DNA of 63,675 bases from Patescibacteria group bacterium (GTDB lineage: Bacteria; Patescibacteriota; JACPGU01): assembly GCA_028718745.1 (NCBI GenBank), contig JAQULF010000004.1, positions 1 to 63,675 of the forward strand, read 5' to 3'. A model generated the notes under the pieces. That model was not told where the DNA came from and did no database searches. It was given only the letters and a program-made list of their open reading frames with translations. Within the stretch, counting starts at the first letter, position 1; the number at the start of each line of letters is the position of its first letter. The position numbers were made by a program, and so were the translations under genes. Positions 5,151 through 61,864 of the stretch are shown here, in pieces.

Positions 5151-5262
5151 GTTGGTTCAATGCTCCCGCATTGAACCATGAATGTACAATAACGCATTAA
5201 AAAATCTTTTTAGAAACTTCAAGATGTACATATTAGGTTCAAATCAGGAGATTTGAACCAAC
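5151..5262 (+). mobile_element. 112-bp REP-doublet (REPIN/MITE-like) element, copy 1
   Basis: Terminal inverted hairpins GTTG-GTTCAATG-CTCCCG-CATTGAAC-C and GGTTCAAAT-CAGGAG-ATTTGAACC-AAC; 110/112 identical to 6689-6800; lies between the protease stop and its terminator. Confidence 0.7.
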
Positions 5263-5281
5263 GAATGACAAATACGAATTT

Positions 5282-5306
5282 GTTCGGAATTATTCCGAAC
5301 TTTTTT
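5282..5306 (+). terminator. Rho-independent terminator (protease gene), displaced by the 112-bp element
   Basis: GTTCGGAAT-T-ATTCCGAAC followed by TTTTTT. Confidence 0.7.
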
Positions 5307-6670: not shown

Positions 6671-6688
6671 TTATAAATCATTTCCAGC

Positions 6689-6800
6689 GTTGGTTCAATG
6701 CTCCCGCATTGAACCGTGAATGTACAATGACGCATTAAAAAATCTTTTTAGAAACTTCAAGATGTACATATTAGGTTCAAATCAGGAGATTTGAACCAAC
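6689..6800 (+). mobile_element. 112-bp REP-doublet (REPIN/MITE-like) element, copy 2
   Basis: Same orientation as copy 1, 2 mismatches (A/G at two positions). Confidence 0.7.
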
Positions 6801-6844
6801 AATTAGATATTCGCAGGGGATTACAAGATATTAAAGAAAAATAA
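6801..6844 (+). pseudogene. Relic of a thyX 3' end
   Basis: 6806-6844 reads DIRRGLQDIKEK*, versus current thyX end DIRRGLQDIKPKE* (6629-6670); 25/30 nt identical in the core; in-frame TAG upstream inside the repeat; ends 2 nt before the tmk ATG. Confidence 0.6.
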
Positions 6845-6846
6845 AC

Positions 6847-7521
6847 ATGCAAAAAGGTAAATTTATTGTTATTGAAGGAACCGATGGTTCCGGTAAGGCG
6901 ACGCAAATTGAATTGTTATCCGAGAGATTAAAAAAAGAAGGTTTAGAAATAGAAACCGCCGATTTTCCTCAATATGATAATTTTTCAAGCGGTTTCGTAG
7001 CCAAATACCTGCGGGGTGAATATGGTACGCTTGATGAAGTTGGGCCATATCGAGGATCAATTTTTTTCTCTGTCGATCGTTATGATAAATCATTTGATAT
7101 TAAAAAATGGTTAGATGAAGGCAAAACAGTTTTTAGCAATCGCTATACTTCCGCCAATATGGGACACCAGACAGCCAAGATTGAAGGTAAAGAAAAAAGA
7201 GACGAATTTCTGGACTGGCTTAATCATTTGGAATTTGATATTTTTGAGATTCCTAAACCGGATTTAACAATTTTGCTTTTTGTGCCTCCGGATATCGGAC
7301 AAAAATTAGTCGATAGAAAAGAAGCGCGAGAATATACGAAAGGCAAGAAAAGAGACATTCACGAAGCTGATATTAATCATTTGAAAAAGGCCTCGGAAGC
7401 ATTTCTTTATGTAGCGGAAAAATATGGCTGGACTGTCATCGATTGCACCGAAAATGGCCAACTTCTTTCTCGCGAAAAAATCCATGAAAAAATATATGAA
7501 GTAGTTAAAAAAATAATTTAA
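6847..7521 (+). CDS. tmk: Thymidylate kinase
   Basis: P-loop IVIEGTDGSGKATQ, DRY-like SVDRYDKS, lid region. Confidence 0.93.
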   Translation: MQKGKFIVIEGTDGSGKATQIELLSERLKKEGLEIETADFPQYDNFSSGFVAKYLRGEYGTLDEVGPYRGSIFFSVDRYDKSFDIKKWLDEGKTVFSNRYTSANMGHQTAKIEGKEKRDEFLDWLNHLEFDIFEIPKPDLTILLFVPPDIGQKLVDRKEAREYTKGKKRDIHEADINHLKKASEAFLYVAEKYGWTVIDCTENGQLLSREKIHEKIYEVVKKII

Positions 7522-7526
7522 AACCC

Positions 7527-8726
7527 ATGAAAGACAAACAAATTGAGAAGCTTATAAAGGCGGAAGAGGAGAGGCAGGAAAAAACTATTTCCCTGATCGC
7601 TTCGGAAAATTATGTTTCCGACGATGTTCTGACTGCGCTTGGATCCAAATTTACCAACAAATACTCCGAAGGTTATCCGGGTAAAAGATATTATAAGGGC
7701 CAAACTTTTACCGATGAAGTGGAAAATCTTTGCCAAGAAAGAGCGCTAAAACTATTTAAGCTTTCACCTGAAAAATGGAGCGTTAATGTTCAGCCACTTT
7801 CCGGTTCACCGGCAAATCTGGCTGTTTATGTGGCGCTCGTACCGCTGGGTGAAAAAGTAATGGGTATGTCGCTCGATCACGGCGGACATTTGACTCACGG
7901 CCACAAAGTTTCGGTTACCGGAAAATTTTGGCATCAGATTCCTTATGGCGTAAATAAAGATACAGAGGTTATCGATTATGATGAAATAAAGAAAATTGCG
8001 CTAGAAGAAAAACCAAAAATGATTATCGCCGGATATACCGCCTATCCTAGAATTGTAGATTTTAAAAAATTCAGAGAGATTGCTGACGACAACAATGCGA
8101 TTCTTATGGTAGATATGTCTCACTTTGCCGGACTCGTCGCGGGAGAAGCTTATCCATCTCCATTTGAATATGCGGATATTGTAACTACTACCACGCATAA
8201 AACTTTGCGAGGTCCGCGAAGTGCTTTAATTTTTGCTCGCAAAGATAAAACTCAAACCAGCGCCAAGGGTAATGAAGTCAGTTTTGCTGATCTGATAGAC
8301 AAAGCCGTATTTCCCGGACTTCAAGGCGGTCCGCACATGAATCAAATCGCAGCAGTTGCCGTGGCGCTAAAAGAAGCAGATACACCGGAGTTTAAAAAGT
8401 ATGCTGAACAAGTTATAAAAAATGCTCACACATTGACAGATGAATTGAAAAAGTTGGGCTGGAAAATTATTTCCGGAGGAACAGATAGTCATCTTATTCT
8501 GGTAGATACATTTATGGGGGGCGAAGGAATGAGTGGGGCCGAAGCTAGTGATAAATTGGAAAAAGAGGGGATTATCGTCAATAAAAATACGATTCCAAAT
8601 GAAACTCGAAGCCCAATGGATCCTTCCGGCATTCGCCTCGGCACCGCCGGCGAAACCACAAGAGGAGCAAAAGAAAAAGATATGGTGAATCTAGCGAAAC
8701 GAATTGATGAGGCGTTAAGAAAATAA
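7527..8726 (+). CDS. glyA: Serine hydroxymethyltransferase
   Basis: SLIASENY, PLP-lysine block TTTTHKTLRGPRSALIF. Confidence 0.95.
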   Translation: MKDKQIEKLIKAEEERQEKTISLIASENYVSDDVLTALGSKFTNKYSEGYPGKRYYKGQTFTDEVENLCQERALKLFKLSPEKWSVNVQPLSGSPANLAVYVALVPLGEKVMGMSLDHGGHLTHGHKVSVTGKFWHQIPYGVNKDTEVIDYDEIKKIALEEKPKMIIAGYTAYPRIVDFKKFREIADDNNAILMVDMSHFAGLVAGEAYPSPFEYADIVTTTTHKTLRGPRSALIFARKDKTQTSAKGNEVSFADLIDKAVFPGLQGGPHMNQIAAVAVALKEADTPEFKKYAEQVIKNAHTLTDELKKLGWKIISGGTDSHLILVDTFMGGEGMSGAEASDKLEKEGIIVNKNTIPNETRSPMDPSGIRLGTAGETTRGAKEKDMVNLAKRIDEALRK

Positions 8727-17247: not shown

Positions 17248-17347
17248 GGGTCTACAAATTACGAATTTATTACGAATGTACGAATTTTTTTCCTAATAAT
17301 TTTCTCTTATCTTATTCGTATATTCGTACCTATTCGTAATTCGTAGA
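17248..17347 (+). repeat. ~97-bp TACGAAT palindromic element, copy 1
   Basis: GGGTCTACaAATTACGAAT...ATTCGTAATTCGTAGA; outer 16 nt form near-perfect inverted termini (one mismatch in this copy). Confidence 0.8.
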
Positions 17348-26318: not shown

Positions 26319-26402
26319 CCCCAGTCAAATTTGAAAACTATTTGACAGGGTTTACCCTAGTCAAATCCCAATGCAGTTGGGAGCGAAGCTATTTGACAGG
26401 GT
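26319..26402. repeat. Alternating AGTCAAAT / ATTTGACAGGG word palindrome, overlapping the U32 stop
   Basis: cccAGTCAAAT..ATTTGACaggg-ttt-accctAGTCAAAT..ATTTGACaggg. Confidence 0.7.
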
Positions 26403-27894
26403 GAATTTTCTTTCTCAAAATAGATCGCTCCGGGATTTCTTTTTTCCTTGTCCCGGGTATTCCCGAGGGAGCATCAAATGTAACCCAAACTTTTTCTTGT
26501 GGTTTTAAAATTTCTTCTAATTCAGGTCCGGGTGAAAAATTTTGCGCCCCTATGTTTTTTCTAATTTCTTTAATCTTTGTTTTTATAATCTCATCCGGCG
26601 TTATAATTTCAACTTTATCGCCAACTTTAAATTTATTTTTTACTTCAACTAAATACAAATATGTTGGTTCCGAGTTCAACTCGGAACCTTGATGCGAACT
26701 AACAACCGAGATAATTTGTCCAATTGGAATTACCGGCGGCCTGAAAGCCGCTACATTATATTCCTGTTCGTAATCGTGGCGGCCAAGTAGAAATCCATGA
26801 CTGTAACCTCTATGCTGAATCATATTTAATTCTTTATAAAGATCTTTGATTAATTTTTGATATTTTTCTCTGTTCTTATCAAAGATCCTTGATTTTCTGT
26901 TGGGTACAACAGAAGCTCGAGGATGACAATATACATAATATGCATTGATTGCCTTGCGATAAATGCGGGTTACAACTGCTAAATAATAAATGCTCTTTGC
27001 TCGTCCTTCAATTTTTAAAGAATCAATTCCCGATTCGATAAATTTATCTAATATGTCGAGCGAACAAATCTCTTTTGAATTCATAAAATATGTACCATTC
27101 TCATCTTCTTGTACCTCAACCAAATCTCTCGGACGAGTTTCTTCTTCAAGAAAACATTCTTGAAGTCCGACATCAAGATTAATCTTGATGTCGGACTTCG
27201 GAACCATCTTGACTTTGTATTTCCAGCGACAGCTTTGCGCGCAATCACCAAGATTCGCTTCTCGGCCGGTAAAATATTTTGACAATAAACATCTCCCCGA
27301 ATATGCCATACACATCGCGCCATGGCCGAAAACCTCTAATTCAGGTATGGTCCCGATGTTCAACTTAGGGGAATCCCCTAAGTTGAACATCGGGGATTTG
27401 GCCATTCTCTTTTTAATTTCCTTAATTTCTTCCAGCGTTGTTTCTCTCGCTAAAACCACCCTCTGCGCACCCAGCTTACCCCACATCATAACCCCTTCAG
27501 AATTTAAGGTATTCGCTTGCGTAGAAATATGAATCTCAACTTTGGGTAGATATTTTTTAACTAATGAAAACATTCCTAAGTCTGAAACGATAACCCCATC
27601 AGGAGAGGCCTGTAATTTTATTTTAATTTCTTTTAGCGCTCTTTCAATTTCCTTGAGTTGATTTTCATGCGGAAAAACATTAAAAGTTAGATAAACCTTC
27701 ACCCCTCGCTCATGCGCAAACTTAATTCCTTCCTTCAAAGTTTTCAAAGTGAAAGTAATTTCACGGGGATTTCGCAAACTCCAAGAGGGGAGTCCGCAAT
27801 AAACCGCATCCGCGCCAAAAACAACGGCTGTTTTTAGCCGTTCTAAGTCTCCGGCTGGACAAAGAAGTTCAATTTTTTTAATAGCTTTTTTCAT
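26389..27894 (-). CDS. Peptidase U32 family protein
   Basis: ELLCPAGDLERLKTAVVFGADAVYCG, EVFGHGAMCMAYSGRCLLS; carries three in-frame repeat insertions. Confidence 0.88.
   Translation of the reverse strand: MKKAIKKIELLCPAGDLERLKTAVVFGADAVYCGLPSWSLRNPREITFTLKTLKEGIKFAHERGVKVYLTFNVFPHENQLKEIERALKEIKIKLQASPDGVIVSDLGMFSLVKKYLPKVEIHISTQANTLNSEGVMMWGKLGAQRVVLARETTLEEIKEIKKRMAKSPMFNLGDSPKLNIGTIPELEVFGHGAMCMAYSGRCLLSKYFTGREANLGDCAQSCRWKYKVKMVPKSDIKINLDVGLQECFLEEETRPRDLVEVQEDENGTYFMNSKEICSLDILDKFIESGIDSLKIEGRAKSIYYLAVVTRIYRKAINAYYVYCHPRASVVPNRKSRIFDKNREKYQKLIKDLYKELNMIQHRGYSHGFLLGRHDYEQEYNVAAFRPPVIPIGQIISVVSSHQGSELNSEPTYLYLVEVKNKFKVGDKVEIITPDEIIKTKIKEIRKNIGAQNFSPGPELEEILKPQEKVWVTFDAPSGIPGTRKKEIPERSILRKKIHPVK
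26530..26553 (-). repeat. Degenerate 24-nt REP-like palindrome in frame in the U32 gene
   Basis: Gene strand ATAG-GGGCGCAAAATTTTTCACCC translated IGAQNFSP; compare VGAQNFAP at 36474-36497. Confidence 0.6.
26881..26929. repeat. 49-nt hairpin element in frame in the U32 gene
   Basis: aaagatccttgattTTCTGTTGggtaCAACAGAAgctcgaggatgacaa; 46/49 match to intergenic 35126-35174; translated CHPRASVVPNRKSRIF. Confidence 0.8.
27352..27394. repeat. 43-nt perfect palindrome inside the U32 CDS
   Basis: CCCGATGTTCAACTTAGGGGA-A-TCCCCTAAGTTGAACATCGGG (21-nt arms), translated within SPMFNLGDSPKLNIGT. Confidence 0.85.
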
Positions 27895-27905
27895 AAAATT
27901 ATAGA

Positions 27906-28000
27906 GGGTCTACGAATTACGAATTTATTACGAATGTACGAATCCTTTTCTAATAGTTTTCTCTTATTCGTATATTCGTACCTATTCGTAATTCGTAGAC
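27906..28000 (+). repeat. ~97-bp TACGAAT palindromic element, copy 2
   Basis: Near-identical to 17248-17347, same orientation; in the divergent U32 / VirD4-like spacer. Confidence 0.8.
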
Positions 28001-32825: not shown

Positions 32826-32869
32826 TAAACCTCTTTATAAATAAAAACTATTGCGCTATTATTATTTTT
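32826..32869 (+). repeat. 44-bp direct repeat, left copy (flanks the RAYT unit)
   Basis: TAAACCTCTTTATAAATAAAAACTATTGCGCTATTATTATTTTT, identical to 33652-33695. Confidence 0.85.
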
Positions 32870-32930
32870 ATTGCAAGCAATCCTAAAAACAAACAATATG
32901 CCAAGAAATACAAAAATTATTGTAAACTGT

Positions 32931-32957
32931 GTTGGCTCCATGCTCCTGCGTGGAGCC
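32931..32957 (+). repeat. REP hairpin, left flank of RAYT
   Basis: GTTG-GCTCCATG-CTCCTG-CGTGGAGC-C; exact reverse complement at 33559-33585. Confidence 0.85.
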
Positions 32958-33001
32958 TAAATGTTCAATAAAGCATTAAAAACATTTTAGACAAAAATAA
33001 A

Positions 33002-33541
33002 ATGCCCACACCAAGAGTAAATAAAGAAAATGAAAGTTTCCCTCATTTTGTAACTATAACTACCATTGAGTGGTTGGATATTTTTACCAAAAAAGAATAC
33101 TTTGAGATTATGATAGATTGTCTGAAATACTGCCGAGACAAATTAGGTCTTTTGCTTTATGAGTATGTCTTTATGACCAATCACATTCACTTAATAATCC
33201 AATCTAAAGAAGGATATAAACTATCTCAAATAATAAGCAGTTTCAAACAATTCACCAGTAAGAGAATATTAGACGAATTAGAGAAAGATCATAGAAAATA
33301 TATTTTAAAAATAATAGAAAATAGCTTTAGCAAAAAGGAAGGAACACAAATTCAAATCTGGCAGAGAGAAAACTACCCGGAGGTTTTAGAAACGGAAAAA
33401 TTTATGGATCAAAAGATTGACTATATTTATAATAATCCAGTTAAAAAAGGTTATGTAGAAAAACCGGAAGATTGGACTTATTCTTCGGCAAGAAATAAAT
33501 TTTTAGACGACAACAGCGTTATTACTCTAGATGATTTTTAA
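33002..33541 (+). CDS. REP-associated tyrosine transposase (RAYT; IS200/IS605 Y1 HUH family)
   Basis: HUH motif FMTNHIHLII; catalytic-Tyr block IDYIYNNPVKKGYV; 179 aa; flanked by inverted REPs. Confidence 0.85.
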   Translation: MPTPRVNKENESFPHFVTITTIEWLDIFTKKEYFEIMIDCLKYCRDKLGLLLYEYVFMTNHIHLIIQSKEGYKLSQIISSFKQFTSKRILDELEKDHRKYILKIIENSFSKKEGTQIQIWQRENYPEVLETEKFMDQKIDYIYNNPVKKGYVEKPEDWTYSSARNKFLDDNSVITLDDF

Positions 33542-33558
33542 TACCCATGGTGCATTTT

Positions 33559-33585
33559 GGCTCCACGCAGGAGCATGGAGCCAAC
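33559..33585 (-). repeat. REP hairpin, right flank of RAYT
   Basis: GGCTCCACGCAGGAGCATGGAGCCAAC is the perfect 27-nt inverted copy of 32931-32957. Confidence 0.85.
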
Positions 33586-33651
33586 ATCCGGAAAATTAAA
33601 AAGGGAGGATTGTTAGTAGGTATTTTAATTAAAATGATTTTAATTCAGTCC

Positions 33652-33695
33652 TAAACCTCTTTATAAATAAAAACTATTGCGCTATTATTATTTTT
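33652..33695 (+). repeat. 44-bp direct repeat, right copy
   Basis: Identical to 32826-32869; here it continues into a TATAAT box. Confidence 0.85.
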
Positions 33696-33705
33696 GTGTT
33701 ATAAT
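33677..33705 (+). promoter_or_regulatory. Sigma-70-type promoter partly contained in the duplicated 44-mer
   Basis: TTGCGC, 17-nt spacer, TATAAT; the left copy of the 44-mer has the -35 but no -10. Confidence 0.55.
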
Positions 33706-33742
33706 CATTACTACGAATGGGCAGGGGAGGGGACATGCTGAT

Positions 33743-33780
33743 TTATTCGTATATTCGTACCAATTCGTAATTTGTAGACC
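33743..33780 (+). repeat. Right-arm-only remnant of the TACGAAT element
   Basis: tttattcgtatattcgtaccaattcgtaatttgtagacc matches the right arm of the 17248/27906/54846 elements. Confidence 0.6.
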
Positions 33781-33863: not shown

Positions 33864-34418
33864 ATGATAACAAACAACAAAACAGCGGGGGACTCAAACC
33901 TCGATATTGTGCGACATTTACTGGAATCGGCTGAAGCGCAAATCAGAAGCGCAAAACAGCTTTTGGATGGCGGAGCGACAAAAGGAAAAAGATTAAAGAA
34001 AGCTGATCTGGAACATAAAATTTCGGAATTAAATATAATCTCTGAAGGCAGAATCATCGAAGGTATTTTTGATGGTGAAATGATGATTGGGCCGGAAAAA
34101 AAGAAATATCCGGTACCGGCAAACTACGCTTCAAAATCCAAATTTGTAGCTGGAGATGTTTTGAAATTAACCATTGAAGAAGACGGTTCTTTCGTTTATA
34201 AACAAATCAAACCAATTGACCGCAAACGCCTTGTAGGCTCATTATTGTACGAAGATGGCCAATATAAGGTCCTAGCCGGCGGAAAGGCCTATAAAGTGCT
34301 ATTAGCGTCGGTTACATACTTTAAGTTAAAGCCCGGCGACGGCGTTACTGTAGCCGTACCGTCCGAAGAAGATTCCGACTGGGCAGCAATAGAGTCCGCA
34401 GCGATAAATGAGGAATAA
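33864..34418 (+). CDS. Hypothetical protein
   Basis: 184-aa ORF with core-genome (AT-rich) composition, downstream of the promoter at 33677. Confidence 0.55.
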   Translation: MITNNKTAGDSNLDIVRHLLESAEAQIRSAKQLLDGGATKGKRLKKADLEHKISELNIISEGRIIEGIFDGEMMIGPEKKKYPVPANYASKSKFVAGDVLKLTIEEDGSFVYKQIKPIDRKRLVGSLLYEDGQYKVLAGGKAYKVLLASVTYFKLKPGDGVTVAVPSEEDSDWAAIESAAINEE

Positions 34419-36278: not shown

Positions 36279-39185
36279 TTACAGTTCCACACTCTCCCCC
36301 GGTTTGATGACATTATCATCCTCTTCGCCAACAGGGAAAACAAGATCTTCGGCCACCCCTTCACCGATTGGGATATCTTTAATCGTTTCCTGATCGGGCG
36401 CGATGAATCGCGCCCCTACATTCTCTTCGATAGGGCTAATACTTTCACTAGAAACATTTTCCGCAACATTCTCGGGCGCAAAATTTTGCGCCCCTACGGG
36501 TTCTTCTTCATTTTTAATTTTTACCCCGTCAAATTGCGAAGCAACATTTGACTGGGGTGACTTTTGACTTTTTCTAATGTACCACACTCCCCCTTCTTTC
36601 CCTTTTACCTCTCGATAACCTTCACCGGATTTTTTAACTGGAATAAATTCTTGCGCTTGCCCTGGCGTATCAGGAGAAAAACTGCCCCTCTCTCCTCCTC
36701 TGACGGGGTTGAGCGAGTTTTGCGCGATAGATTCGCTCCAGGTGAGAATAGCTTGCTCGACATCCGCTCTTGGAATGGCGTATTTCATTCTTGATTCATC
36801 AATAATTTTTTGTCCCAGATTATATTTTTCTTTAAAATACTCCCAAAACTTTATTGTAGTAGCCGAAAATGCCGGATAAACGGTATTGTCGATCATCATT
36901 TTTACATAAATCTGAAATGTGCTTAAATTTAATAAGTCGTTCTCATCAAACACCGGTTCGAAAATCTTTTTTAGAGTTGGCGGATCGTCCGGACCAACGC
37001 GAAAAGCGATGATATTTCCGGCATTACCCAAAACGGAATCTCGAATATCAGGATCCAATTGAGCAATATATTGATGCGCAATAATCAGGTTTAATTTATA
37101 TTTGCGAGATTCTGACAAAATGCTGGCGAATGAAGAAGTGGCAAAATTCTGAAACTCATCCACATATAGGTAGAATGGCTTCATCTCCTCATCGCGCCTT
37201 CCCGCTCTCTCCATGATTGTAAGGTAAATTTTAGTAATAATCATGGCTCCCAAAAGCCTCATATTATCCTCTCCAACCTCACCTTTGGAAATTTTTACCA
37301 ATAAAATTTTTCCATTGTCAGTGATGTCTTTAAAATCAATCGTTGATTTCGGCTGGCCAACCATATTGCGAATTGATGGAACGGAAAGAAATTGTCCGAT
37401 TTTATTTTGAATTGGAGCAATCGCCTCAACAAGAAATTTCGGACTGGCTTTTACCTGCGCTTCAAATTCCTCAATCCAAAATTCGCGAACCGAAACATCT
37501 TTCACATTATCGATAATCATCTTGCGATATTCTTTGTTAACCAACATTTTTGAAGCTGAAAGCAAGGTAGTCCCCGGAGTTTCGAGCAGTGCCAGAATCG
37601 TATTTTTTAAAATATGCTCCATGCGAGCGCTCCAAACACCCGGCCAGATTTTGGTAAAAATGCTCATGAGAGATGAGGCAATCAAGTCTCTTTTATTCTC
37701 ATCGACATTTTCCAGCAAATTAAATCCCGGACAAAATTCCCTATCCCCCGGATTGAGAATAACCACATCTTTAATCCTATTTTCCGGAATATAATCCAGA
37801 ATGGTATCGATAAATTCTCCGTGCGGATCGATAATTGCCAGTCCCCTGCCCTCTCGAATATCGTCCAGAGCTTGGATTTTCATCACGGTTGATTTACCGG
37901 TACCGGTTTGTCCGATGATATACATATGCTGAACACGGTCTTTCATTTTAATACCAAAGTTGGTGATCTTATCGCGGAAATTGGTTTGGCCAAAAACAGT
38001 CAGTTCCTCTGCGGGAACTTCACCTTCTATCGGCAATGTTGCCGGCGGCTCGCCTTTTTTACTGCCCGACCAATCAATGGTTGGAGTTTCAACCGTTATG
38101 GTTGGTAAGTGATAAAGCGAAGCTAATTCTTCAATGTTTAAAATATAACCGTCCTCCTCAAAATTTCTGGTCTGAAAAGCGTTCAAAAATTCATAATCAT
38201 CGTGATAATATCCTCTGTTTATAAAGCCATTAAGATTGGAAGCATTATATTGTTTGAAAGCACCCACGATTGACTGCACTTTTATTTTCATGGCTTCATT
38301 GCTTTTGGAAGACAAGAACATCAAGCGAATTTTGGCTTCATAGCCAAGCTTGGTAGATTTTTCTTCGATGGCTTTAACCGCCTGCTCCATAGGCCCGGAA
38401 AGCTTTACCGCTGTCGCACCCTTCGATCCGACAGAGGGTTCGGGAGCAAAAACCAGTTTTAAAAATAAGAATATATAGTAGAAGATTTTAAAAATGCCAA
38501 TCGCAGCATCAGGTACTCTCTTGCCGCTTTTGATATTATTTATGTAATGAATGGCTTTATTTTGCCATTTGTCGCTGACGGGACGAGCCAACATTTGAAT
38601 CCAAATTTGTTCTCCTTCATCTAACTGCGACAAAACTCCGGTAATGCTGGCCAAGGGATCCACTTCGAAGTTTAAAAATGTTTTAATAGGGAAAAAGTCG
38701 CGCCTAATCAAGGAAAGCTCGGTACCAACAAAGTGACTCCCCTCTTTTCTTTTTTCCAGCGTATAGTCGCCCGCTTCGGAAATATCCACATTGGGATATT
38801 GCGCGTAGACCTGTCCGGTAACAAAATCTTTTAGATGAACCGGCGCGAAGATATAGAAACGAATGTATTTATCAGTAGAGACAATCTCAAAGCTCAAATG
38901 CTCTTGGAAAGAACCTTCTTCCAATTTCTCACGGGCTGATTTATAAATGCCATGCAGTGAAGCAAACATCAATTGAGCGGATAAAGGTCCTTTTTCATTA
39001 TTTCTCGGCACGCGAACCAGAATGGTGGTATATTTCTGCTTGGTAATCCAGAGCCTTTTGCGTCTTTTACTGTAAGCTTTGAGCACCAGATAGATACCAA
39101 AAATCCAACCTGATAAAATCAGGATGTAAATCAGATAGCGCACTACTTCATAGGCAATCGTGGCAAAATCGATGGGGGTGTTCAT
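36279..39185 (-). CDS. VirD4/TraD-like coupling-type ATPase, membrane-anchored, paralog 2, with long low-complexity C-terminal tail
   Basis: Walker A GQTGTGKST, IDPHGE, Walker B FYLYVDEFQNF, RKYKLNLIIAHQ; N-terminal domain alignable to paralog 1. Confidence 0.8.
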   Translation of the reverse strand: MNTPIDFATIAYEVVRYLIYILILSGWIFGIYLVLKAYSKRRKRLWITKQKYTTILVRVPRNNEKGPLSAQLMFASLHGIYKSAREKLEEGSFQEHLSFEIVSTDKYIRFYIFAPVHLKDFVTGQVYAQYPNVDISEAGDYTLEKRKEGSHFVGTELSLIRRDFFPIKTFLNFEVDPLASITGVLSQLDEGEQIWIQMLARPVSDKWQNKAIHYINNIKSGKRVPDAAIGIFKIFYYIFLFLKLVFAPEPSVGSKGATAVKLSGPMEQAVKAIEEKSTKLGYEAKIRLMFLSSKSNEAMKIKVQSIVGAFKQYNASNLNGFINRGYYHDDYEFLNAFQTRNFEEDGYILNIEELASLYHLPTITVETPTIDWSGSKKGEPPATLPIEGEVPAEELTVFGQTNFRDKITNFGIKMKDRVQHMYIIGQTGTGKSTVMKIQALDDIREGRGLAIIDPHGEFIDTILDYIPENRIKDVVILNPGDREFCPGFNLLENVDENKRDLIASSLMSIFTKIWPGVWSARMEHILKNTILALLETPGTTLLSASKMLVNKEYRKMIIDNVKDVSVREFWIEEFEAQVKASPKFLVEAIAPIQNKIGQFLSVPSIRNMVGQPKSTIDFKDITDNGKILLVKISKGEVGEDNMRLLGAMIITKIYLTIMERAGRRDEEMKPFYLYVDEFQNFATSSFASILSESRKYKLNLIIAHQYIAQLDPDIRDSVLGNAGNIIAFRVGPDDPPTLKKIFEPVFDENDLLNLSTFQIYVKMMIDNTVYPAFSATTIKFWEYFKEKYNLGQKIIDESRMKYAIPRADVEQAILTWSESIAQNSLNPVRGGERGSFSPDTPGQAQEFIPVKKSGEGYREVKGKEGGVWYIRKSQKSPQSNVASQFDGVKIKNEEEPVGAQNFAPENVAENVSSESISPIEENVGARFIAPDQETIKDIPIGEGVAEDLVFPVGEEDDNVIKPGESVEL
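36396..36419 (-). repeat. 24-nt REP-like GTAG + palindrome in frame in the VirD4-like tail
   Basis: Gene strand GTAG-GGGCGCGAT-TC-ATCGCGCCC translated VGARFIAP. Confidence 0.8.
36474..36497 (-). repeat. 24-nt REP-like GTAG + palindrome in frame in the VirD4-like tail
   Basis: Gene strand GTAG-GGGCGCAAAATTTTGCGCCC translated VGAQNFAP. Confidence 0.8.
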
Positions 39186-45975: not shown

Positions 45976-46682
45976 AGGAGCATTTTCAAATCACTTGGTA
46001 ATTTTGATTTAAAATCCAACATCTCGCCGGTTTTAGGATGTTTAAATGATAGTTCAGATGCATGTAGGAACTGACGACGAAGTCCTATTTTTTTTGAGAA
46101 AATTTCCGAATCGCGGCTTTTATAAACCGGATCCCCCACCACCGGAAATCCAATCGCAAAAAAATGCGCGCGAATTTGGTGAGTGCGGCCGGTCTCGATG
46201 ATTACATCAATATAAGACAAATCGGGCATATGGGACGAATGTAAATACTTTTTAACTTCGTAATGCGTGATAGCTTCTCTCCCAAGGGCGTTATGTATAA
46301 CGCCCCTACAACTCACAAAACGGGTCCGATTTTTTGGGTCTCTTTTCAAGGCGATATTGATCGTCCCTTTTTTTGGTTCCAGTTTACCAAAAACCAAGGC
46401 TTCATAAATCTTTTTAACTTGGTGAGAGGCGAACTGGTTTTGAAGGTTAACCAGCGCCTTTTCATTTTTTGCCACAACCATCAGCCCCGAGGTATCGCGA
46501 TCCAAACGATGAACAATCCCTCCGCGGGGCAGATTGATTTTGTATTCATTAATTAAAATTTTTTCCAATGTAGAGACGCTACTCCTCGCGTCTTTTTTAT
46601 CAGATTCAACGACTAAACCTGAAGGCTTGTTTATTACCAACAAATCATCGTCTTCAAATATGATCTCGAAATATTTAGACAT
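45969..46682 (-). CDS. RluA/RluD-family pseudouridine synthase (no S4 domain)
   Basis: LLVINKPSGLVV, HRLDRDTSGLMVVAKN, GRTHQIRAH; start set at MSKYFEI because upstream codons are repeat-encoded. Confidence 0.88.
   Translation of the reverse strand: MSKYFEIIFEDDDLLVINKPSGLVVESDKKDARSSVSTLEKILINEYKINLPRGGIVHRLDRDTSGLMVVAKNEKALVNLQNQFASHQVKKIYEALVFGKLEPKKGTINIALKRDPKNRTRFVSCRGVIHNALGREAITHYEVKKYLHSSHMPDLSYIDVIIETGRTHQIRAHFFAIGFPVVGDPVYKSRDSEIFSKKIGLRRQFLHASELSFKHPKTGEMLDFKSKLPSDLKMLLE
46286..46309 (-). repeat. 24-nt REP-like GTAG + palindrome in frame in the rluD-like gene (different frame)
   Basis: Gene strand GTAG-GGGCGTTAT-AC-ATAACGCCC, read as (C)RGVIHNAL. Confidence 0.8.
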
Positions 46683-54845: not shown

Positions 54846-54942
54846 GGTCTACGAATTACGAATTTAATACGAATATACGAATTCTTTTCTAATATATTTT
54901 TTTTCTTATTCGTAAATTCGTACCCATTCGTATTTCGTAGAA
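54846..54942 (+). repeat. ~97-bp TACGAAT palindromic element, copy 3 (inside the por operon)
   Basis: GGTCTACGAATTACGAAT...ATTCGTATTTCGTAGA between the porD stop and the porA start. Confidence 0.8.
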
Positions 54943-55966: not shown

Positions 55967-58900
55967 TTAGTAAGTTACCGCTGTTATAGTCATATCTATC
56001 GAATAGTTTCCAATTGACTGTTCTACCGGTATTTTTTGTGTTAGACCGGCTCCCGTTAAATCCCAATAACACCCCGTTGCCGCAGAGCTGTCTGATTGAA
56101 GAAGGGTAATACTATCAACAGAACCCTGAACAAAGGAGGCTAAACCGCCCTTATTGATTCCCGTAGTAGTACATCCGCTTTTTGCTGTTACGGTCGCGGT
56201 CGTTGGATTAATAGCTAATTGTCCATTTGTACATCCTGATCCTAACGAGTCATTGAAGTCAAAAGTAGTGCTGCCTGTATCCCATAAAGCTGAACTGCCG
56301 CTTGTCGCCGCAATAGAAAGCGTCCATGTTTTGGTAGCGGAATCATTATTTACTCTTATCTTTTGGCTGCTATCGCCAAGTGTTCCGGTACTTGATTGGC
56401 AATCAAACCCTAATGATGCGCTTTGTAAAGGATAAACAGGACTGACAACATGAATCCCGCTACTGTCTACTACATCAGAAAAAAGATCTCCAAAATTCCA
56501 ACTGAAATTATTCCCGCCATTTAAATTGGAGGTATCAGTTGCATTAATTGTGCTTCCACTTGAAGCATCAGAATCTTTTGCATTGGTGCTATACACAACC
56601 GGACTGCCGGAAGCGACCAGTATCCACTGCGTCGGAGTAGATGAGGAGCGCAATTGAACTCTTGTGCTGGATGATTGCCCATTAACATTAAAGTTTGTAA
56701 AGGCATAGGTAGAACCGGCATTGAAACGAATTTTTGTAGAAGCTGTTAAAGCGTTAAATGTGGTTGCGGTGGCAGATGCGGAAAATATCACTGAAGGATC
56801 GGTATCCGGATCGGTCCCTGTGTTATTTGTTATGGTTAAGGTTTCGAAAGCAGAAGCCGAAGTCATTGTCCCAGACAATGTCTGTCCCGAAGAAATTCCT
56901 TTAATAACAACTATTCCATTATTATGCGTAAATGTTCCATTATTTGTCCAATTCCCTTCTAGATTTATTGTACTGCCTCCTGCGTCTGGCGCAGCAAGAG
57001 TAGCGCTGGCGTTTATCAATATATTGCCTGCGACGGTAATAACAGGATCATTTGTTGTACCGCTGACAACTACAGCATTGGTACCGTTGCCTATAGTTAA
57101 ATCCCCTTGCATTAGAAATGAACCTCCGGAAGCGCCCAGTTGATATGTAGGAGCTCCTGCCGGATTAAGCGTTAAGTTCCCATAACCGGGGGTAGTTATG
57201 GCGGTAATAGTCTGCGCGCCGGTTTGGTTATAAATAGTTGTGCTGGTAGCGCCAAAAGTATATGTGCCAAAACCGGTCGGAAATGTTTGTGTTGTACCAC
57301 TCATACTAAATGTAGCGCTATTTTTTACAATGAATGAAGCTGTGCCGGCACCGGCAATATTTACTCCATTATTTTTAAAAATAGCAGCCGTATCAGAATC
57401 ATCACCAACTGTTATGTTGCCAGTAACATTGGTTGAGGTAATAGCCGCGGCAGGATAGGCGCCAGATACATTAGTGTTCAAAATTTGTAGATTAGCATAA
57501 GCTGCCGCTGTCCCCCACGCTACCGGAATAGATTGTCCCGCCGTCGTGCTATTAAAAGCCCATGTACTGGTTGCACCCGGAGACGAGGTGGCATTAGTTG
57601 GATTCGTAATGATACCGGAAATTTTTGCTGTTCCTGCGCCAGAAATACTTATAACTTTATTTGCGGCGCCACCAGCAGCAAAGGTGATGCCACCCATTGT
57701 TAATGCCCCGGTAGTGATATTAATAGCGCTGACAAACCCTGCCGTAGCATCTGTACCAGCCATAGTTATTGTTCCGGCCACAATTGCGCTGCCATTATTT
57801 ATATTCCAAGCCGATGTCACAGCCGCTGTCGGTTGATTTAGAGTCACAGCGCCAGACATAGTTAGAGCAATACCGCTAGCTTGAGTAAAGGTGGTAGCAT
57901 AAGCGCCCGGTGTTATAACAAGCCTTCCAGCTCCAATAGAACAGGCGGTGTTTAAAGTAATGTTTGCAACAGCTGAAGCGGAAGAAGTGATTAGTAATCC
58001 ATAAAATGGCGTTGAATAAGTCCCATCAATGACATTTGATGCGCCATTCATAGTTACAACATAGTTTCCCGTCAAAGCCGAGTCGCTGGAATTATTTGTC
58101 CAGTCGCCGGCAACAGTAAACCCGGCCGTCATAGTAATAGTACCGCTGGTTATTTTGAAATTGCCAAAAGTAATGCTACCGGTAAATGGTCTGGGATAAG
58201 AATTACCAATAAATTCAGCCGTGCTGCCGGGATCAAACACTAGATTATCTCTAACTGTAAAATCATTACCAAATTTTATGGTTTCTCCGGACATTGTGGT
58301 AAAAATCGGATCATAACCGGCTGTCACACTTCCATAATCAAGAACATTATTAAAAATAATGGTACCTGCACTAGTGATATTTTGAATCGTACCGGCTTGA
58401 AATGTTTGAAGACCATTAATAGTAATAGTGCCGGAAGTGAAACTAACAACTTGGTTGGCTTCGGTGATATCATTGGCAAAATTAATATCATTAGCAACAG
58501 TCAAAGATCCACTGGTCACAATAATCTGGGATACGCGGGCATTCGTACTTGTACCAACAAAACTGATGTAATCAGTATCTATGGTAGCTGTACCAGCATT
58601 AATATAAAAGGATGATATGAGATTATCACCTGTAGGCTGGTTCATAGTTACAATAGCGCCAGAACCGGTTATCAATAAATCAACCGTTGCATCATTAAGA
58701 GTTAAAGATTGATTACCGGCAGTGGTAGCACTAAAAATCAAATCGCCCAGACCAATGGTAGTATCCAAATTAATAGTTATATTGGCGCCATCACCAATAG
58801 TTAAACCATAAAATGTTGTTGAATAATTACCCTTGATAACCTTACTGTTACCGCTCATTACTACTGTAAAATTTCCTGCTAGAGCCGAAGCGCCGGAATT

Positions 58901-61864
58901 ATTTTCCCAGTCGCCGGCAACAGTAATTGATTTATTCAAAGTAAGAGTTCCGCTTGTGATTTTGAGATTGCCAAAAGTATTTGCCCCTGTACCACCCGTA
59001 GCGCAACTAGCGGTAAATTCTTCTGTACTACCAGCATTATATATCAAAGCGTCAGCATTTGCTGTTAAATTACCGCCATGTTTTACCAATGTCCCCGACA
59101 TGGTTGTAAAAATTGGATCATAGCCGGCTGTTGCGCTTCCGTATGCCAAAGTACTGCCAAAAATTATAGTGCCGGCGCTGGTGATATTTTGAATTGTACC
59201 GGCTTGAAATGTTTCGGCGCCATTCATAGTTATAGTGCCCGAAGTAACACTGACAACTTGGTCTGCTTCCGTTGTATTATTTGCAAATACAATACTACCT
59301 GTTGTAGTCAGCGATCCGGTAGTCACGACTACTTGAGATACGCGGGCATTGATGTTTGTACCAACAAAACTAACATTTCCACCAACGCTAGCCGAACCAT
59401 CATTTATATTCCAAGAGTTAACGATACCATCCGTAGTAGGTTGATTAATAGTAACATTACCGGTAATAGATAATGAATTAGTTCCTGAAAAAGTAAGACT
59501 GGTATTAATACTTGTTCCGGTTATGGTTAAACTTTTTATTGTAGTTCCACTCACATCAAGAGTAACAACATGTCCATTGGCGATAGTAACATCATCGGAA
59601 GATGTGGGAACATGACCGCAGGTCCAGTTCCCGGCCGTGTTCCAATTCATAGGAGTAGTATTGGATTGACACGCCGCATCTGAAGCTATTTGCCATGAAC
59701 GGGTTTCAGTAAAAATTGAACCGGCGCTAGCTGGGCCAAGAAGATAGAGCTGCGGAGAAACTTTGGGAGCAGCATAAGTATAGGTAAGAGCCATTTCTTC
59801 GCCGCTGCTAAGATTGAGATCCCAAGAAATTATTTTTTTGCCTCCAAAATCATTTAAAGATATATAGGGTGTGTCATTATTAATAGTTGGATCAACTATT
59901 TCAAAAGTACTCGGGACCTGTTCTTCAAATGTTCCTGAAAAATCCTCGCTGGCTGTAATTTTAAAAGTCATTTTGTAATTAGCTTCAAAAGGGTTGATTC
60001 TTGTAGCGCCCGCCCTTTCAACAGTTATTGGCATACTGCCTCCAACCCTAAAACTATCACTAATGGAATAATTATTATTTAGATTGGTTAATTCCATTTG
60101 GTAGACACCTACAGATCCTGTCGTAAAATAAGCATAGTAGTCCGGGTTATCGGTAACATTATCTTTGCCACACTCGGTACTGTAAAAAATACTTCCATCA
60201 GCAGTTGTTAATGTAGATACAATGCCATCAGGATCAGTTATTTCCAATTGAAGATTGGCATCACAAACCGTTGAACCATTATCATCCAAAACACCCATTT
60301 GGATATAAGAAGTTTCGTCTGAAAGATAAATCGTTTTATCTAAATTGACAGCCAAAACTCCCCAAACAAAGCTCTGGTTGGAAATTAAAAGATTTCCGGT
60401 CCCATCAGCAATTTCTATGTGAAGCATGTATTTTCCTGGTCTGAAGGATTCAGTTGGTTTGGGAAGCACAATCTTTGTTGCGCCATTAACCACATCTATA
60501 ACGGGACTTACCATCTTAACATCACCAATCATATCCGTAGTATAAGCCGTTACCACTTGAGGTGATAGATCTTGGGCATAAGCGCTGATACTTCTTAAAA
60601 AACTTAATACTTGGTCTTTTATGCTTTCACTTTCTGCCGGCTGTTCCTCTCCTGATTGATTTGCATCACTAGGAGTTATTTGTAAATCTGGAGTTGGCGG
60701 AGGAGTTTCTTCGGTTGGCATTAGACTCTCAATTGTTGGTGTTTCAGTTGCTGGCGCAGGCGCTAAATCGGGTGTGGGAGTTGGAGCGGTAGTATCTTCT
60801 TCCGCCGGTAGGCTGACTGATTCTTGATCGGGTTGTTCCTGACTAACCGAAGGTGCTGGCGATATTTGATCAATATTATCAGAAGAATTATCTTCGCTTG
60901 TTGGCGTCAAATTATTAGGCGTCAAATTATTAGAAGAATCCGTTGGGATTTGGGGATTTGTCTGGTTTGTATTTTCTGAAGAAATATCCTGTTCCGTAGT
61001 TTCAATTTTTTCATTTTTTTCATTCAAAATCGGCGCTTCAACTACAGGTTTCTCCTCTAAAATATCTTTGGGGATTATATTTTCTTTTATCACAAACTCT
61101 ATATTTTCTCCCGCCTGAAAACTGCTGCGCGGATTTTCAAAAACCTTATCTTTGCTTACTTTTATTTTTTTAAAGGAATTAAGCATTTCTGTAGTTAAAA
61201 CATCTTCCAAAACGGCTTCTAAAGAAAAACTATCAATACCAATATCCGGTGAGTCAGAAGAATTATTTATTACTGGTTCTAAAGCAATTTGCAGCTGATC
61301 TATTTCATAAGCAAATTTCAAGGGAATATTCAAACTTTCCGCGATGTCTCCGGCAAAAATATCTCCGGCTTTATACCAAATTTTTCCATCCAGAGAATAT
61401 TTTAAAATAAAAATCGGATTAGGATCACCCGGATAAATGCTCGGTTGAGCCGGAGAAGTATCGTTATTGTTTTCTAAAACAAATTTTAGTTTGGCGCTTT
61501 TTATTTTTCTCTGATCTTGCTTCTCATTTATATTAGCCTCGTCTTTTTTAAAAGCTTTACAGGCAAGCGCTGGCGAGGAATTATTTAATAAAATCACCTG
61601 ACCGTCTGAAACTCCTTGCGCTTTATCAGCATTTTCTGACCCGAAACAATCCGTTGGAAAAAAACTTTCCGATTGCGCCTTGCTGCCAAGCCTCCCCCAT
61701 GGCCCTATAACTATAACAAATAAAAAAACTATGGCTAAAGAAAATAAAATAGCATGCCAATTTTTATTCAAACAATTCCGGCAACTACAAAAACAGCTGG
61801 TATTTTTTTGTTTCGTCTTCTCGGTGGATTTCCGATGAGACAATTTTCTTTTCTTCTTTACCAT
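55967..61864 (-). CDS. Giant (1965 aa) membrane-anchored repetitive surface protein with WxL-like C-terminal domain
   Basis: Basic N-terminus + TM anchor; P/T/E-rich linker; 269-aa tandem repeats rich in G/T/N/S; C-terminus homologous to the 63189-63675 product (FDC...TWTLSIAAT...). Confidence 0.8.
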   Translation of the reverse strand: MVKKKRKLSHRKSTEKTKQKNTSCFCSCRNCLNKNWHAILFSLAIVFLFVIVIGPWGRLGSKAQSESFFPTDCFGSENADKAQGVSDGQVILLNNSSPALACKAFKKDEANINEKQDQRKIKSAKLKFVLENNNDTSPAQPSIYPGDPNPIFILKYSLDGKIWYKAGDIFAGDIAESLNIPLKFAYEIDQLQIALEPVINNSSDSPDIGIDSFSLEAVLEDVLTTEMLNSFKKIKVSKDKVFENPRSSFQAGENIEFVIKENIIPKDILEEKPVVEAPILNEKNEKIETTEQDISSENTNQTNPQIPTDSSNNLTPNNLTPTSEDNSSDNIDQISPAPSVSQEQPDQESVSLPAEEDTTAPTPTPDLAPAPATETPTIESLMPTEETPPPTPDLQITPSDANQSGEEQPAESESIKDQVLSFLRSISAYAQDLSPQVVTAYTTDMIGDVKMVSPVIDVVNGATKIVLPKPTESFRPGKYMLHIEIADGTGNLLISNQSFVWGVLAVNLDKTIYLSDETSYIQMGVLDDNGSTVCDANLQLEITDPDGIVSTLTTADGSIFYSTECGKDNVTDNPDYYAYFTTGSVGVYQMELTNLNNNYSISDSFRVGGSMPITVERAGATRINPFEANYKMTFKITASEDFSGTFEEQVPSTFEIVDPTINNDTPYISLNDFGGKKIISWDLNLSSGEEMALTYTYAAPKVSPQLYLLGPASAGSIFTETRSWQIASDAACQSNTTPMNWNTAGNWTCGHVPTSSDDVTIANGHVVTLDVSGTTIKSLTITGTSINTSLTFSGTNSLSITGNVTINQPTTDGIVNSWNINDGSASVGGNVSFVGTNINARVSQVVVTTGSLTTTGSIVFANNTTEADQVVSVTSGTITMNGAETFQAGTIQNITSAGTIIFGSTLAYGSATAGYDPIFTTMSGTLVKHGGNLTANADALIYNAGSTEEFTASCATGGTGANTFGNLKITSGTLTLNKSITVAGDWENNSGASALAGNFTVVMSGNSKVIKGNYSTTFYGLTIGDGANITINLDTTIGLGDLIFSATTAGNQSLTLNDATVDLLITGSGAIVTMNQPTGDNLISSFYINAGTATIDTDYISFVGTSTNARVSQIIVTSGSLTVANDINFANDITEANQVVSFTSGTITINGLQTFQAGTIQNITSAGTIIFNNVLDYGSVTAGYDPIFTTMSGETIKFGNDFTVRDNLVFDPGSTAEFIGNSYPRPFTGSITFGNFKITSGTITMTAGFTVAGDWTNNSSDSALTGNYVVTMNGASNVIDGTYSTPFYGLLITSSASAVANITLNTACSIGAGRLVITPGAYATTFTQASGIALTMSGAVTLNQPTAAVTSAWNINNGSAIVAGTITMAGTDATAGFVSAINITTGALTMGGITFAAGGAANKVISISGAGTAKISGIITNPTNATSSPGATSTWAFNSTTAGQSIPVAWGTAAAYANLQILNTNVSGAYPAAAITSTNVTGNITVGDDSDTAAIFKNNGVNIAGAGTASFIVKNSATFSMSGTTQTFPTGFGTYTFGATSTTIYNQTGAQTITAITTPGYGNLTLNPAGAPTYQLGASGGSFLMQGDLTIGNGTNAVVVSGTTNDPVITVAGNILINASATLAAPDAGGSTINLEGNWTNNGTFTHNNGIVVIKGISSGQTLSGTMTSASAFETLTITNNTGTDPDTDPSVIFSASATATTFNALTASTKIRFNAGSTYAFTNFNVNGQSSSTRVQLRSSSTPTQWILVASGSPVVYSTNAKDSDASSGSTINATDTSNLNGGNNFSWNFGDLFSDVVDSSGIHVVSPVYPLQSASLGFDCQSSTGTLGDSSQKIRVNNDSATKTWTLSIAATSGSSALWDTGSTTFDFNDSLGSGCTNGQLAINPTTATVTAKSGCTTTGINKGGLASFVQGSVDSITLLQSDSSAATGCYWDLTGAGLTQKIPVEQSIGNYSIDMTITAVTY
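57600..59500 (-). repeat. Tandem ~807-nt (269-aa) coding repeats inside the giant gene (approximate bounds)
   Basis: Landmarks ACCGGCTTGAAATGTTT at 58391 and 59198, and GATACGCGGGCATT at 58530 and 59337, are each 807 nt apart; a third degenerate unit lies downstream. Confidence 0.7.

Follow-up and report, generated by a model that had tools for sequence, protein, structure and literature searches.

A gene for a REP-associated tyrosine transposase (RAYT), flanked by two inverted copies of a repetitive extragenic palindromic (REP) hairpin, lies between two identical 44-bp direct repeats in the contig JAQULF010000004.1 of a Patescibacteria group bacterium. The whole stretch of 63,675 nucleotides that was analysed is referred to below as the window. 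The reading favoured here, with moderate confidence, is that the hairpin-bounded cassette arrived within a foreign fragment of 782 bp, that this fragment entered by a non-canonical capture which duplicated the target, and that the 112-bp elements flanking thyX elsewhere in the window are REPINs (inverted REP doublets) of a sister subtype. RAYTs are usually treated as domesticated and immobile enzymes that spread only REP hairpins, and almost all work on them has dealt with Proteobacteria.

Target repeat, promoter and empty orthologous sites

The 44-mer TAAACCTCTTTATAAATAAAAACTATTGCGCTATTATTATTTTT is present on the forward strand at 32826-32869 and again at 33652-33695, and the two copies are identical at 44 of 44 positions. 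The alignment score of the flanks was 44, compared with a maximum of 16.5 in 2000 shuffles. The right copy provides the -35 element of a promoter, TTGCGC-17-TATAAT with an extended -10 (TGT), at 33677-33705 (+). This promoter serves a conserved Patescibacteria gene (33864-34418, +) encoding a protein of 184 amino acids, which has no Pfam match and has 3505 homologs, the closest of them 92% identical. The left copy contains a -35-like TTGCGC at 32851-32856 with no -10 behind it. The preliminary description of this DNA, which was made from the sequence, had already reported the pair of identical repeats, the promoter that draws its -35 from the right copy and the missing -10 on the left, and these observations hold.

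A scan for consensus promoters did not list TTGCGC-17-TATAAT, the -35 of which matches TTGACA at 3 of 6 positions. Moreover, the pattern TTGC-N18-20-TATAAT was not enriched in the window (2 found vs. 0.96 expected). The promoter call therefore rests on conservation at the orthologous loci. Orthologs of the 184-residue protein were found in L087 (92% identical), L088-L090 (83%) and L091 (82%), where the synteny of the window is kept and comprises a U32 peptidase, a VirB4/TrwB-like ATPase, a pilin-like protein and the 184-residue protein. The RAYT is absent from all of these loci. Instead, an intergenic region of 200-250 nt carries one promoter copy at the same position, with the conserved form TTGCnn-17-TGTTATAAT. 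The individual promoters are AAAAACTATTGCACTATTATTGTTTTTGTGTTATAAT in L087, TTGCAT-17-TATAAT in L088 and TTGCCA-17-TATAAT in L091, each with TGT preceding the -10, and all three share TTGC-N19-TATAAT, with GTGTTATAAT/ATGTTATAAT, at a conserved position. These are the empty sites in related genomes for which the preliminary description had proposed a search. The intergenic DNA upstream of the promoter is variable among the relatives (50-140 nt). Additionally, a related contig of 714 nt and low depth in the source sequencing run, the landfill metagenome X1, has a 38-bp match across the promoter, apparently once, with DNA other than the RAYT directly upstream.

Since the orthologous loci, in four related Patescibacteria lineages, have a single conserved promoter and no RAYT, the 44-mer is, judged by this comparison, duplicated target DNA. 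The last 27 nt of the left copy match the single-copy promoter region of L087 at 93%. On grounds of parsimony, the RAYT would have been inserted in the lineage of the window after its split from the sequenced relatives. A recent arrival of DNA that was probably foreign is indicated both by the two copies of the repeat, which have remained identical, and by the GC content of the RAYT gene, which is 29.4%, compared with a mean of 40.3% for the window, and lies in the lowest 0.6% of 540-nt windows. Together with the exact repeat and the deviant GC, absence from the orthologous sites also sets this cassette apart from the domesticated type of RAYT, which is single-copy and vertically inherited at a stable locus. 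The possibility was considered that the 44-mer is what remains of a larger, decayed tandem duplication. This was rejected, as the DNA next to both copies has no residual similarity.

The right edge of the duplication, between 33695 and 33696, lies 4 nt before the -10 hexamer and inside the spacer between -35 and -10. The gene-proximal repeat copy is thus part of a complete promoter, and the copy upstream of the cassette is left with an orphan -35. It had been suggested earlier that the unit was inserted between the two promoter elements. An entry point between the -35 and the extended -10 agrees with that suggestion. The promoter is not split functionally, the right-hand copy being intact. The insertion was probably tolerated because the duplication keeps the promoter of the conserved gene intact. 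Recombination between the two perfect 44-bp repeats could, in addition, remove the insertion precisely.

A G-rich motif, GGCAGGGGAGGGGA (consensus TAGGGGAGnGG), is located at 33720-33733 in the 5' untranslated region of the gene for the 184-residue protein, about 15-55 nt after the -10, and is kept in the window, L087, L088 and L091. It has no Rfam match and is a possible leader or regulatory element. More generally, no Rfam family was matched between 32000 and 35500 at E ≤ 1.

Logan contigs of run X1, built with k=31, were used as an independent assembly of the locus. Exactly four unitigs were present, namely the left flank (depth 6.0), the 44-mer (18), a unit of 842 nt (10.8) and the right flank (10.8). 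The 842-nt unitig is unbranched and runs 30 nt into the 44-mer at both ends. All four junctions are reproduced and the 44-mer is present at about double dose. In run X1, no other branches lead into or out of the 44-mer node and the 782-bp fragment has no second context.

The RAYT, its hairpins and the element boundaries

The open reading frame at 33002-33541 (+, 179 aa) encodes a RAYT, that is, a Y1 HUH enzyme of the TnpA_REP type, of a clade that is widespread in Patescibacteria (candidate phyla radiation). Its score with the NCBIfam model NF047646 (REP_Tyr_transpos, REP-associated tyrosine transposase) was 104.9 bits (cut-off 80) and that with Pfam Y1_Tnp (PF01797) was 36.9 bits (cut-off 23), while the score with the IS200 model NF033573 was 30.3 bits, under its cut-off of 55. 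These profile matches, together with the exact inverted pair of 27-nt hairpins described below, bear out the earlier identification of the gene as an HUH/Y1 transposase of the RAYT family with inverted REP flanks. Among 35 aligned homologs, no variation was seen at H61 and H63 (H61-I-H63, the H-x-H motif), Y141, N145 or P146. The E. coli TnpA_REP (PDB 4ER8) aligned to the C-terminal 46 residues only (E = 4e-5), with Y141 and N145 falling on Y115 and N119.

A search of 5.8 billion proteins returned 294 homologs with E ≤ 1e-5. The 120 of these that were listed are 52-73% identical to the RAYT, and those with a named source are nearly all from Patescibacteria, including Parcubacteria, Paceibacterota, Moraniibacteriota and Doudnabacteria. 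One listed homolog, P0059 (62% identical), carries the label Promethearchaeota, for which a binning error or cross-domain transfer is possible. Many of the listed homologs reside on contigs of 0.7-1.5 kb, approximately the length of one cassette, as assemblies give when the flanking REPs are repeated. Exact look-ups of the RAYT protein and of the homolog P0026 gave no match, and a literature search for RAYTs in Patescibacteria gave irrelevant hits only and no paper.

The left REP (32931-32957, +) consists of a GTTG foot and a 10-bp stem, including one T.G pair, closed by a TCCT loop, and the right REP (33559-33585, -) is its exact inverted copy. The 27-mer GTTGGCTCCATGCTCCTGCGTGGAGCC has only these two exact occurrences in the window and none in 100 shuffles. 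The inverted repeat around the RAYT reaches 34 nt at 97% identity. Each of the two REPs folds as a 10-bp stem with a 4-nt loop, with a folding z-score of about -6. The same inverted arrangement around a RAYT was found in L002, L004 and L093.

The preliminary description had compared this REP with the 5' hairpin of the thyX-flanking elements and counted 21 of 27 matching positions, the differences comprising two compensatory base-pair swaps, a T.G pair converted to T-A and one change in the loop. It had also noted that the 3' hairpin of those elements has the identical CTCCTG loop. The perfect 27-nt pair, its coordinates and both of these comparisons can be read directly from the sequences. The covariation of the stem now has a broader footing. 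A degenerate REP pattern constrained to a GYTG foot found matches in at least 120 stretches of public metagenome contigs, in addition to further copies in loci already fetched, and 167 REP copies representing 55 distinct variants were collected. The variable stem pairs 6-25, 9-22, 11-20 and 12-19 remain paired in 50, 47, 51 and 49 of the 55 variants, respectively, with several pair types seen at each of the four positions. Since these four variable positions stay paired, the hairpin is selected as a structure.

The foot of the REP is GTTG in the window, GCTG in L002 and L003, and GYTG across the family set that was collected with the GYTG-constrained pattern. The canonical 5' tetranucleotide of REPs is GT[AG]G (PMC8266576, PMC6006769), which the REPs of the window do not carry. 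In the E. coli TnpA_REP, the GTAG foot is reported to be contacted by W94, Q95, E100, H101 and R104 (PMC6006769). The first two of these residues are kept in the window RAYT, as W120 and Q121, and the remaining three are replaced by P126, E127 and E130, so that three of five differ. The three changes fit a GTTG foot in place of GT[AG]G. A third perfect hairpin that resembles a REP and has the foot GTTGG (GTTGGTTCCGAGTTCAACTCGGAACC) was also seen at 26663-26688, within the U32 peptidase gene (26389-27894, minus strand), and may be a chance match or an in-frame REP insertion. It was not counted as a REP.

The boundaries of the element were evaluated by comparison with REPs that have an inverted partner. 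This set includes 29 doublets of REPIN size (76-199 bp) and about 12 units of RAYT size. All of the paired elements start with GTTGG (rarely GCTGG or GTTAG) and end with CCAAC, and unrelated DNA is found directly outside. By this comparison the mobile unit covers 32931-33585, with the two hairpins as its ends and GTTGG...CCAAC as its exact limits. In L093/L113, the RAYT is 67% identical in protein (about 70% in DNA), the REPs are identical to those of the window at 27 of 27 positions, and host DNA adjoins GTTGG and CCAAC directly, with no filler. Because host DNA abuts the REPs there, the stretches of 61 nt (32870-32930) and of 66 nt (33586-33651) between the REPs of the window and the 44-bp repeats are extra DNA outside the conserved element. 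The preliminary description had taken 32870-33651 as the whole unit. Its position between the repeats is correct, and its extent as the element is not. The right filler contains a Shine-Dalgarno-like GGGAGGA and an AT-rich hairpin. BLAST comparison of both fillers with 212 loci and with the rest of the window gave no match, and among the sequencing runs the fillers occur in source run X1 only. The two outer junctions of the 782-bp fragment, each read on its own strand, have no shared motif, and sequence-specific outer cleavage sites were rejected on this ground.

Inside the cassette, the left subterminal region (32958-33001, +) lies between the REP and the RAYT gene. It contains the family-conserved motif ATGTWCAATAA at 32961-32971, which is also found in L002, L093 and the 112-bp REPIN, and may be the promoter of the RAYT or a recognition region.

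REPINs at thyX and other repeats of the window

REPIN1 (5151-5262, +) is a 112-bp inverted doublet of GGTTCAA-type REPs located 1 nt past the stop codon of the upstream protease gene. A second copy, REPIN2 (6689-6800, +), is 98% identical and was inserted into thyX at the 3' end; both elements consist of two GTTGG...CCAAC hairpins in inverted orientation. The linker of the REPIN matches 32960-32982, in the left subterminal region of the RAYT cassette, at 91% over 23 nt (E = 0.002), and ATGTWCAATAA and ...GCATTAAAAA are common to both. Summed word depth in run X1 was 100-130 over REPIN1 and 4-10 in its flanks, and the element was found on 18 contigs with several different flanks. The thyX-type subtype is therefore about 10-fold multi-copy in this run. 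The GGCTCCA-type REP of the window RAYT was found on two other contigs in X1 (depths 8.2 and 2.7). The window covers 63.7 kb of the host genome; in X1, about two further copies of the REP subtype of the window RAYT compare with about 10-fold for the sister subtype.

Contigs of run X1 connect the ends of the REPIN to a different RAYT. One contig carries the left 60 nt of the REPIN followed by AAATAAAAATAAAATGTCTTCATTAAGAAT, which is a RAYT start (MSSLR) like the N-terminus of P0026. Two others read ...ATTGAACTTGATAACCAAAAAGAAGAAA (IELDNQKEE, resembling the family C-terminal consensus IELDN), with a stop just before the hairpin, and continue into the right 49 nt of the REPIN. A second RAYT gene, starting with MSSLR and ending in ...IELDNQKEERCTY before its stop codon, is thus present in the X1 metagenome, bounded by thyX-type REPs and outside the window.

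Because these contigs join the ends of the REPIN to the start and the C-terminus of a RAYT, the 112-bp REPIN is, by sequence comparison, what an internal deletion has left of a second RAYT element, the ends of which are GGTTCAA-type REPs. In the preliminary description the 112-bp elements were recognized as REP doublets homologous to the ends of the RAYT cassette, which the inverted hairpins, the linker match and the copy number confirm, and were assigned to the RAYT of the window as its cognate family, which in view of the X1 contigs is probably not correct. The partner of the thyX REPINs is probably the second RAYT, located elsewhere in the community, in agreement with the rule that each REP family has one RAYT (PMC6006769).

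REPIN2 is accompanied by an imperfect direct repeat. The left copy (6629-6657, +) lies within the 3' end of the live thyX (DIRRGLQDIK), and the right copy (6806-6844, +) is a remnant of the thyX 3' end (DIRRGLQDIKEK and a stop codon) that ends 2 nt before the tmk start codon. The segments 6629-6657 and 6806-6834 are identical at 25 of 29 positions, with an alignment score of 19 compared with a maximum of 15 in 2000 shuffles. The remnant is nearer than the live copy to the C-termini of orthologs (...DIRRGLQDIKKK, stop) and to the DNA of L212. The thyX locus of L212 (88% identical) has no REPIN downstream of thyX, nor in the 169 bp of upstream sequence present on the contig. An empty allele of REPIN2 was not seen in runs X1-X3, and the flanks of REPIN1 have no direct repeat. 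Since the thyX 3' remnant directly abuts tmk, the adjacency of thyX and tmk is older than REPIN2. The gene order is thyX-REPIN2-tmk-glyA in the window (5378-8726), thyX-glyA in L212 and tmk-thyX-glyA in L213. A terminator-like hairpin (TTCGGAA..TTCCGAA followed by TTTTTT) is found at 5281-5305, upstream of the thyX promoter, and is conserved at positions 68-92 of L212. REPIN1 lies between the protease stop codon and this hairpin.

The window has other repeats as well. A second, unrelated family consists of imperfect palindromes, about 93 bp long and composed of the words TACGAAT/ATTCGTA (GGTCTACGAATTACGAAT...ATTCGTAATTCGTAGAC), at 17249-17347, 27907-27999 and 54846-54941, with a half copy at 33738-33778. 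At least the copy at 27907-27999 is located between divergently oriented genes. The half copy falls in the 5' untranslated region of the 184-residue protein; its word depth in X1 was 138, and it occurs on many contigs in all three runs. This palindrome could be a miniature inverted-repeat transposable element or a shared operator. A third dispersed family of GC-rich, terminator-like hairpins, GGGCGCnnnnnnnnGCGCCCCTAC(A/G), is present at 3988-4012, 26529-26553, 36396-36420, 36474-36498 and 46286-46310. Furthermore, 58048-59371 is a direct duplication with a period of 807 bp and 74-86% identity in several blocks, which suggests tandem paralogous gene segments.

Route of insertion and comparison with known systems

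Canonical Y1 transposition makes no target duplication and moves the element only. A survey of 42 elements, in which 150-nt flanks were compared by local alignment with a shuffle test, examined how common flanking repeats are in this family. The flanking repeat was not significant in 34 of the 42 elements, in keeping with the earlier remark that a 44-bp repeat is unexpected for Y1-type elements, and long duplication was rejected as a general property of the family. A z-score above 4 was obtained for 8 elements, compared with 2 of 129 shifted controls. Three of these eight hits were REP copies, one was weak (z 4.3, imperfect and far from the element) and one was of low complexity. The remaining three were the window RAYT (44 nt), REPIN2 (25/29; z 8.7) and L002 (18 nt, exact), which comes from an independent assembly and has a RAYT 73% identical to that of the window. 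In all three cases, filler separates the repeat from the REP at one end or both, and the duplicated DNA has a function: it is the promoter -35 at the window RAYT, the last ten or so codons of thyX at REPIN2, and in L002 the stop codon of a radical-SAM gene with its 3' flank. This common anatomy is suggestive, in a small sample.

In the favoured reading, a 782-bp fragment, made up of the cassette with 61 bp and 66 bp of unrelated filler, would have entered the intergenic region upstream of the 184-residue gene at a point between the -35 and the extended -10, and the 44 bp to the left of this point would have been duplicated. The fragment, horizontally acquired, could have been captured at a staggered break or by template switching, with a fill-in of about 44 nt. 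This specific route of capture and fill-in is put forward tentatively, as a possibility somewhat short of even. The canonical single-strand 'peel-and-paste' route is disfavoured, because most elements of the family have no duplication, the filler lies outside the element and the fragment is compositionally foreign.

Several observations weigh against a captured foreign fragment. Two of the three repeat-flanked elements lie in one window with repeats of similar length (44 bp and about 30-42 bp), and all three have filler, which hints at a recurrent and perhaps element-specific process rather than a one-off repair accident. A donor locus for the filler was not found, and the foreign origin of the fragment is read from composition and absence only. 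Microhomology, although predicted by template-switch models, is not visible at the two junctions. The order left flank, 44-mer, unit, 44-mer, right flank comes from the assembler of the window; the k=31 graph reproduces the adjacencies and cannot order the paths. Both this order and the lack of empty alleles in the population rest on assembled contigs, not on raw reads. Finally, the difference in depth between the left flank (6.0) and the unit with the right flank (10.8) is unexplained.

The recurrence of the anatomy leads to the alternative that the long duplication is an intrinsic, infrequent product of integration catalysed by the RAYT. The inverted REP ends would be joined to different target strands at offset positions, gap fill-in would give duplications of variable length (18-44 bp), and imprecise distal cleavage would bring filler along. 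The succession of repeat, filler, REP-bounded element, filler and repeat in three independent cases (the window RAYT, REPIN2 and L002) is what such a process would leave, and the repeats are enriched over the shifted controls (3-4/42 vs. 2/129). Moreover, the reported cleavage site of TnpA_REP is a dinucleotide on the 5' or the 3' side of the REP and not a fixed end (PMC8266576). However, the 34 elements that lack a flanking repeat and the outer junctions that lack a common motif are not accounted for, and the repeat copies at REPIN2 are only about 86% identical, whereas REPIN1 and REPIN2 are 98% identical. The chemistry is a further difficulty: as established for IS200/IS605 elements, Y1 HUH enzymes work on single-stranded DNA, and staggered joints in double strands are not known from them. 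Integration of this kind is considered unlikely.

Slightly less likely still is a two-step allelic recombination, in which cassette and filler were first inserted upstream of the 44-mer in a conspecific strain and an illegitimate or unequal exchange with an empty allele, anchored by homology, then followed. The high variability of the DNA upstream of the promoter among relatives would suit such an exchange, and the lower depth on the left is compatible with strain heterogeneity left of the 44-mer. However, the 44-mer node offers no alternative branch in run X1, two rare events are needed, and the filler must still travel with the cassette. Very improbable is an assembly artefact or mixed population in which the chromosome lacks the insertion and the RAYT unit exists with one 44-mer as a circle or tandem array: the k=31 graph, with two edges into and two out of the 44-mer node, formally allows either path, and the depths fit both, but 44 bp is shorter than typical reads and large assembler k-mers, so that reads spanning from the left flank into the unit must presumably exist, an 826-bp circle without a replication function would not be expected to match chromosomal depth (10.8 vs. 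10.8), which makes an empty site with such a circle implausible, and L002 has an analogous structure in an independent assembly.

RAYTs with inverted REPs, and REPINs, are already known as a kind of element. What is new is the host group, Patescibacteria; the GTTG foot with matching residue changes; the evidence for recent insertion of a whole cassette; REPINs that are demonstrable deletion derivatives; and long target duplications with filler. A large RAYT clade with its own GTTG foot is thus present in ultra-small, streamlined Patescibacteria. A locus with filled and empty orthologous sites allows the route of REP/RAYT integration to be tested, and a duplicated target can make an insertion into an essential regulatory or coding end tolerable. 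Should the duplication be the scar of a single repair event, what is left is one more ordinary member of a family already known. A broader and doubtful proposal is that Patescibacteria cassettes with the GTTG foot are horizontally mobile as whole units, that cassettes and REPINs can integrate by an undescribed Y1 HUH pathway which copies 18-44 bp of target and co-inserts filler, and that they persist preferentially where a promoter or the 3' end of a gene is regenerated in gene-dense minimal genomes.

Among known systems, the IS200/IS605 elements (IS608, ISDra2) and palindrome-associated miniature inverted-repeat elements share with the present family a Y1 HUH transposase, subterminal hairpins and deletion derivatives mobilised in trans, and most insertions of the window RAYT's family likewise leave no target duplication. 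In contrast, the window protein scores below the IS200 cut-off (30.3 vs. 55), there is no tnpB, a 44-bp direct repeat is present, and the ends are inverted copies of one hairpin, whereas IS200/IS605 elements have distinct left- and right-end hairpins on one strand.

The REPIN-RAYT system of Pseudomonas fluorescens (group 3; Bertels & Rainey 2011, PMC3116915) resembles the present one in that inverted REP doublets are present in multiple copies as non-autonomous elements, every REP subtype has a RAYT of its own, and the palindromes are short and near-perfect. Here, however, the host is a Patescibacterium with a reduced genome, the copy number in the sample is low, at about 10, the REPIN is an internal-deletion derivative in which about 60 nt from the left and about 49 nt from the right end of the RAYT element are retained, and the REP subtype of the window RAYT itself is hardly amplified.

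The E. coli TnpA_REP REPtron (PDB 4ER8; RAYT group 2, subclass 2.2) is likewise built on a Y1 HUH enzyme of similar size, with the HxH motif and a tyrosine motif DYIYxNPVKxG that has N at +4, and its gene is flanked by inverted REP hairpins with a 4-nt foot directly 5' of the stem. It differs in the foot, which is GT[AG]G in E. coli and GTTG in the window (GCTG in some relatives), and in the stem, which in the window is short and has no bulge. REPtrons have been described as not transposing as a unit (PMC6006769), whereas the orthologous sites lack the cassette of the window, which has the look of a recent insertion.

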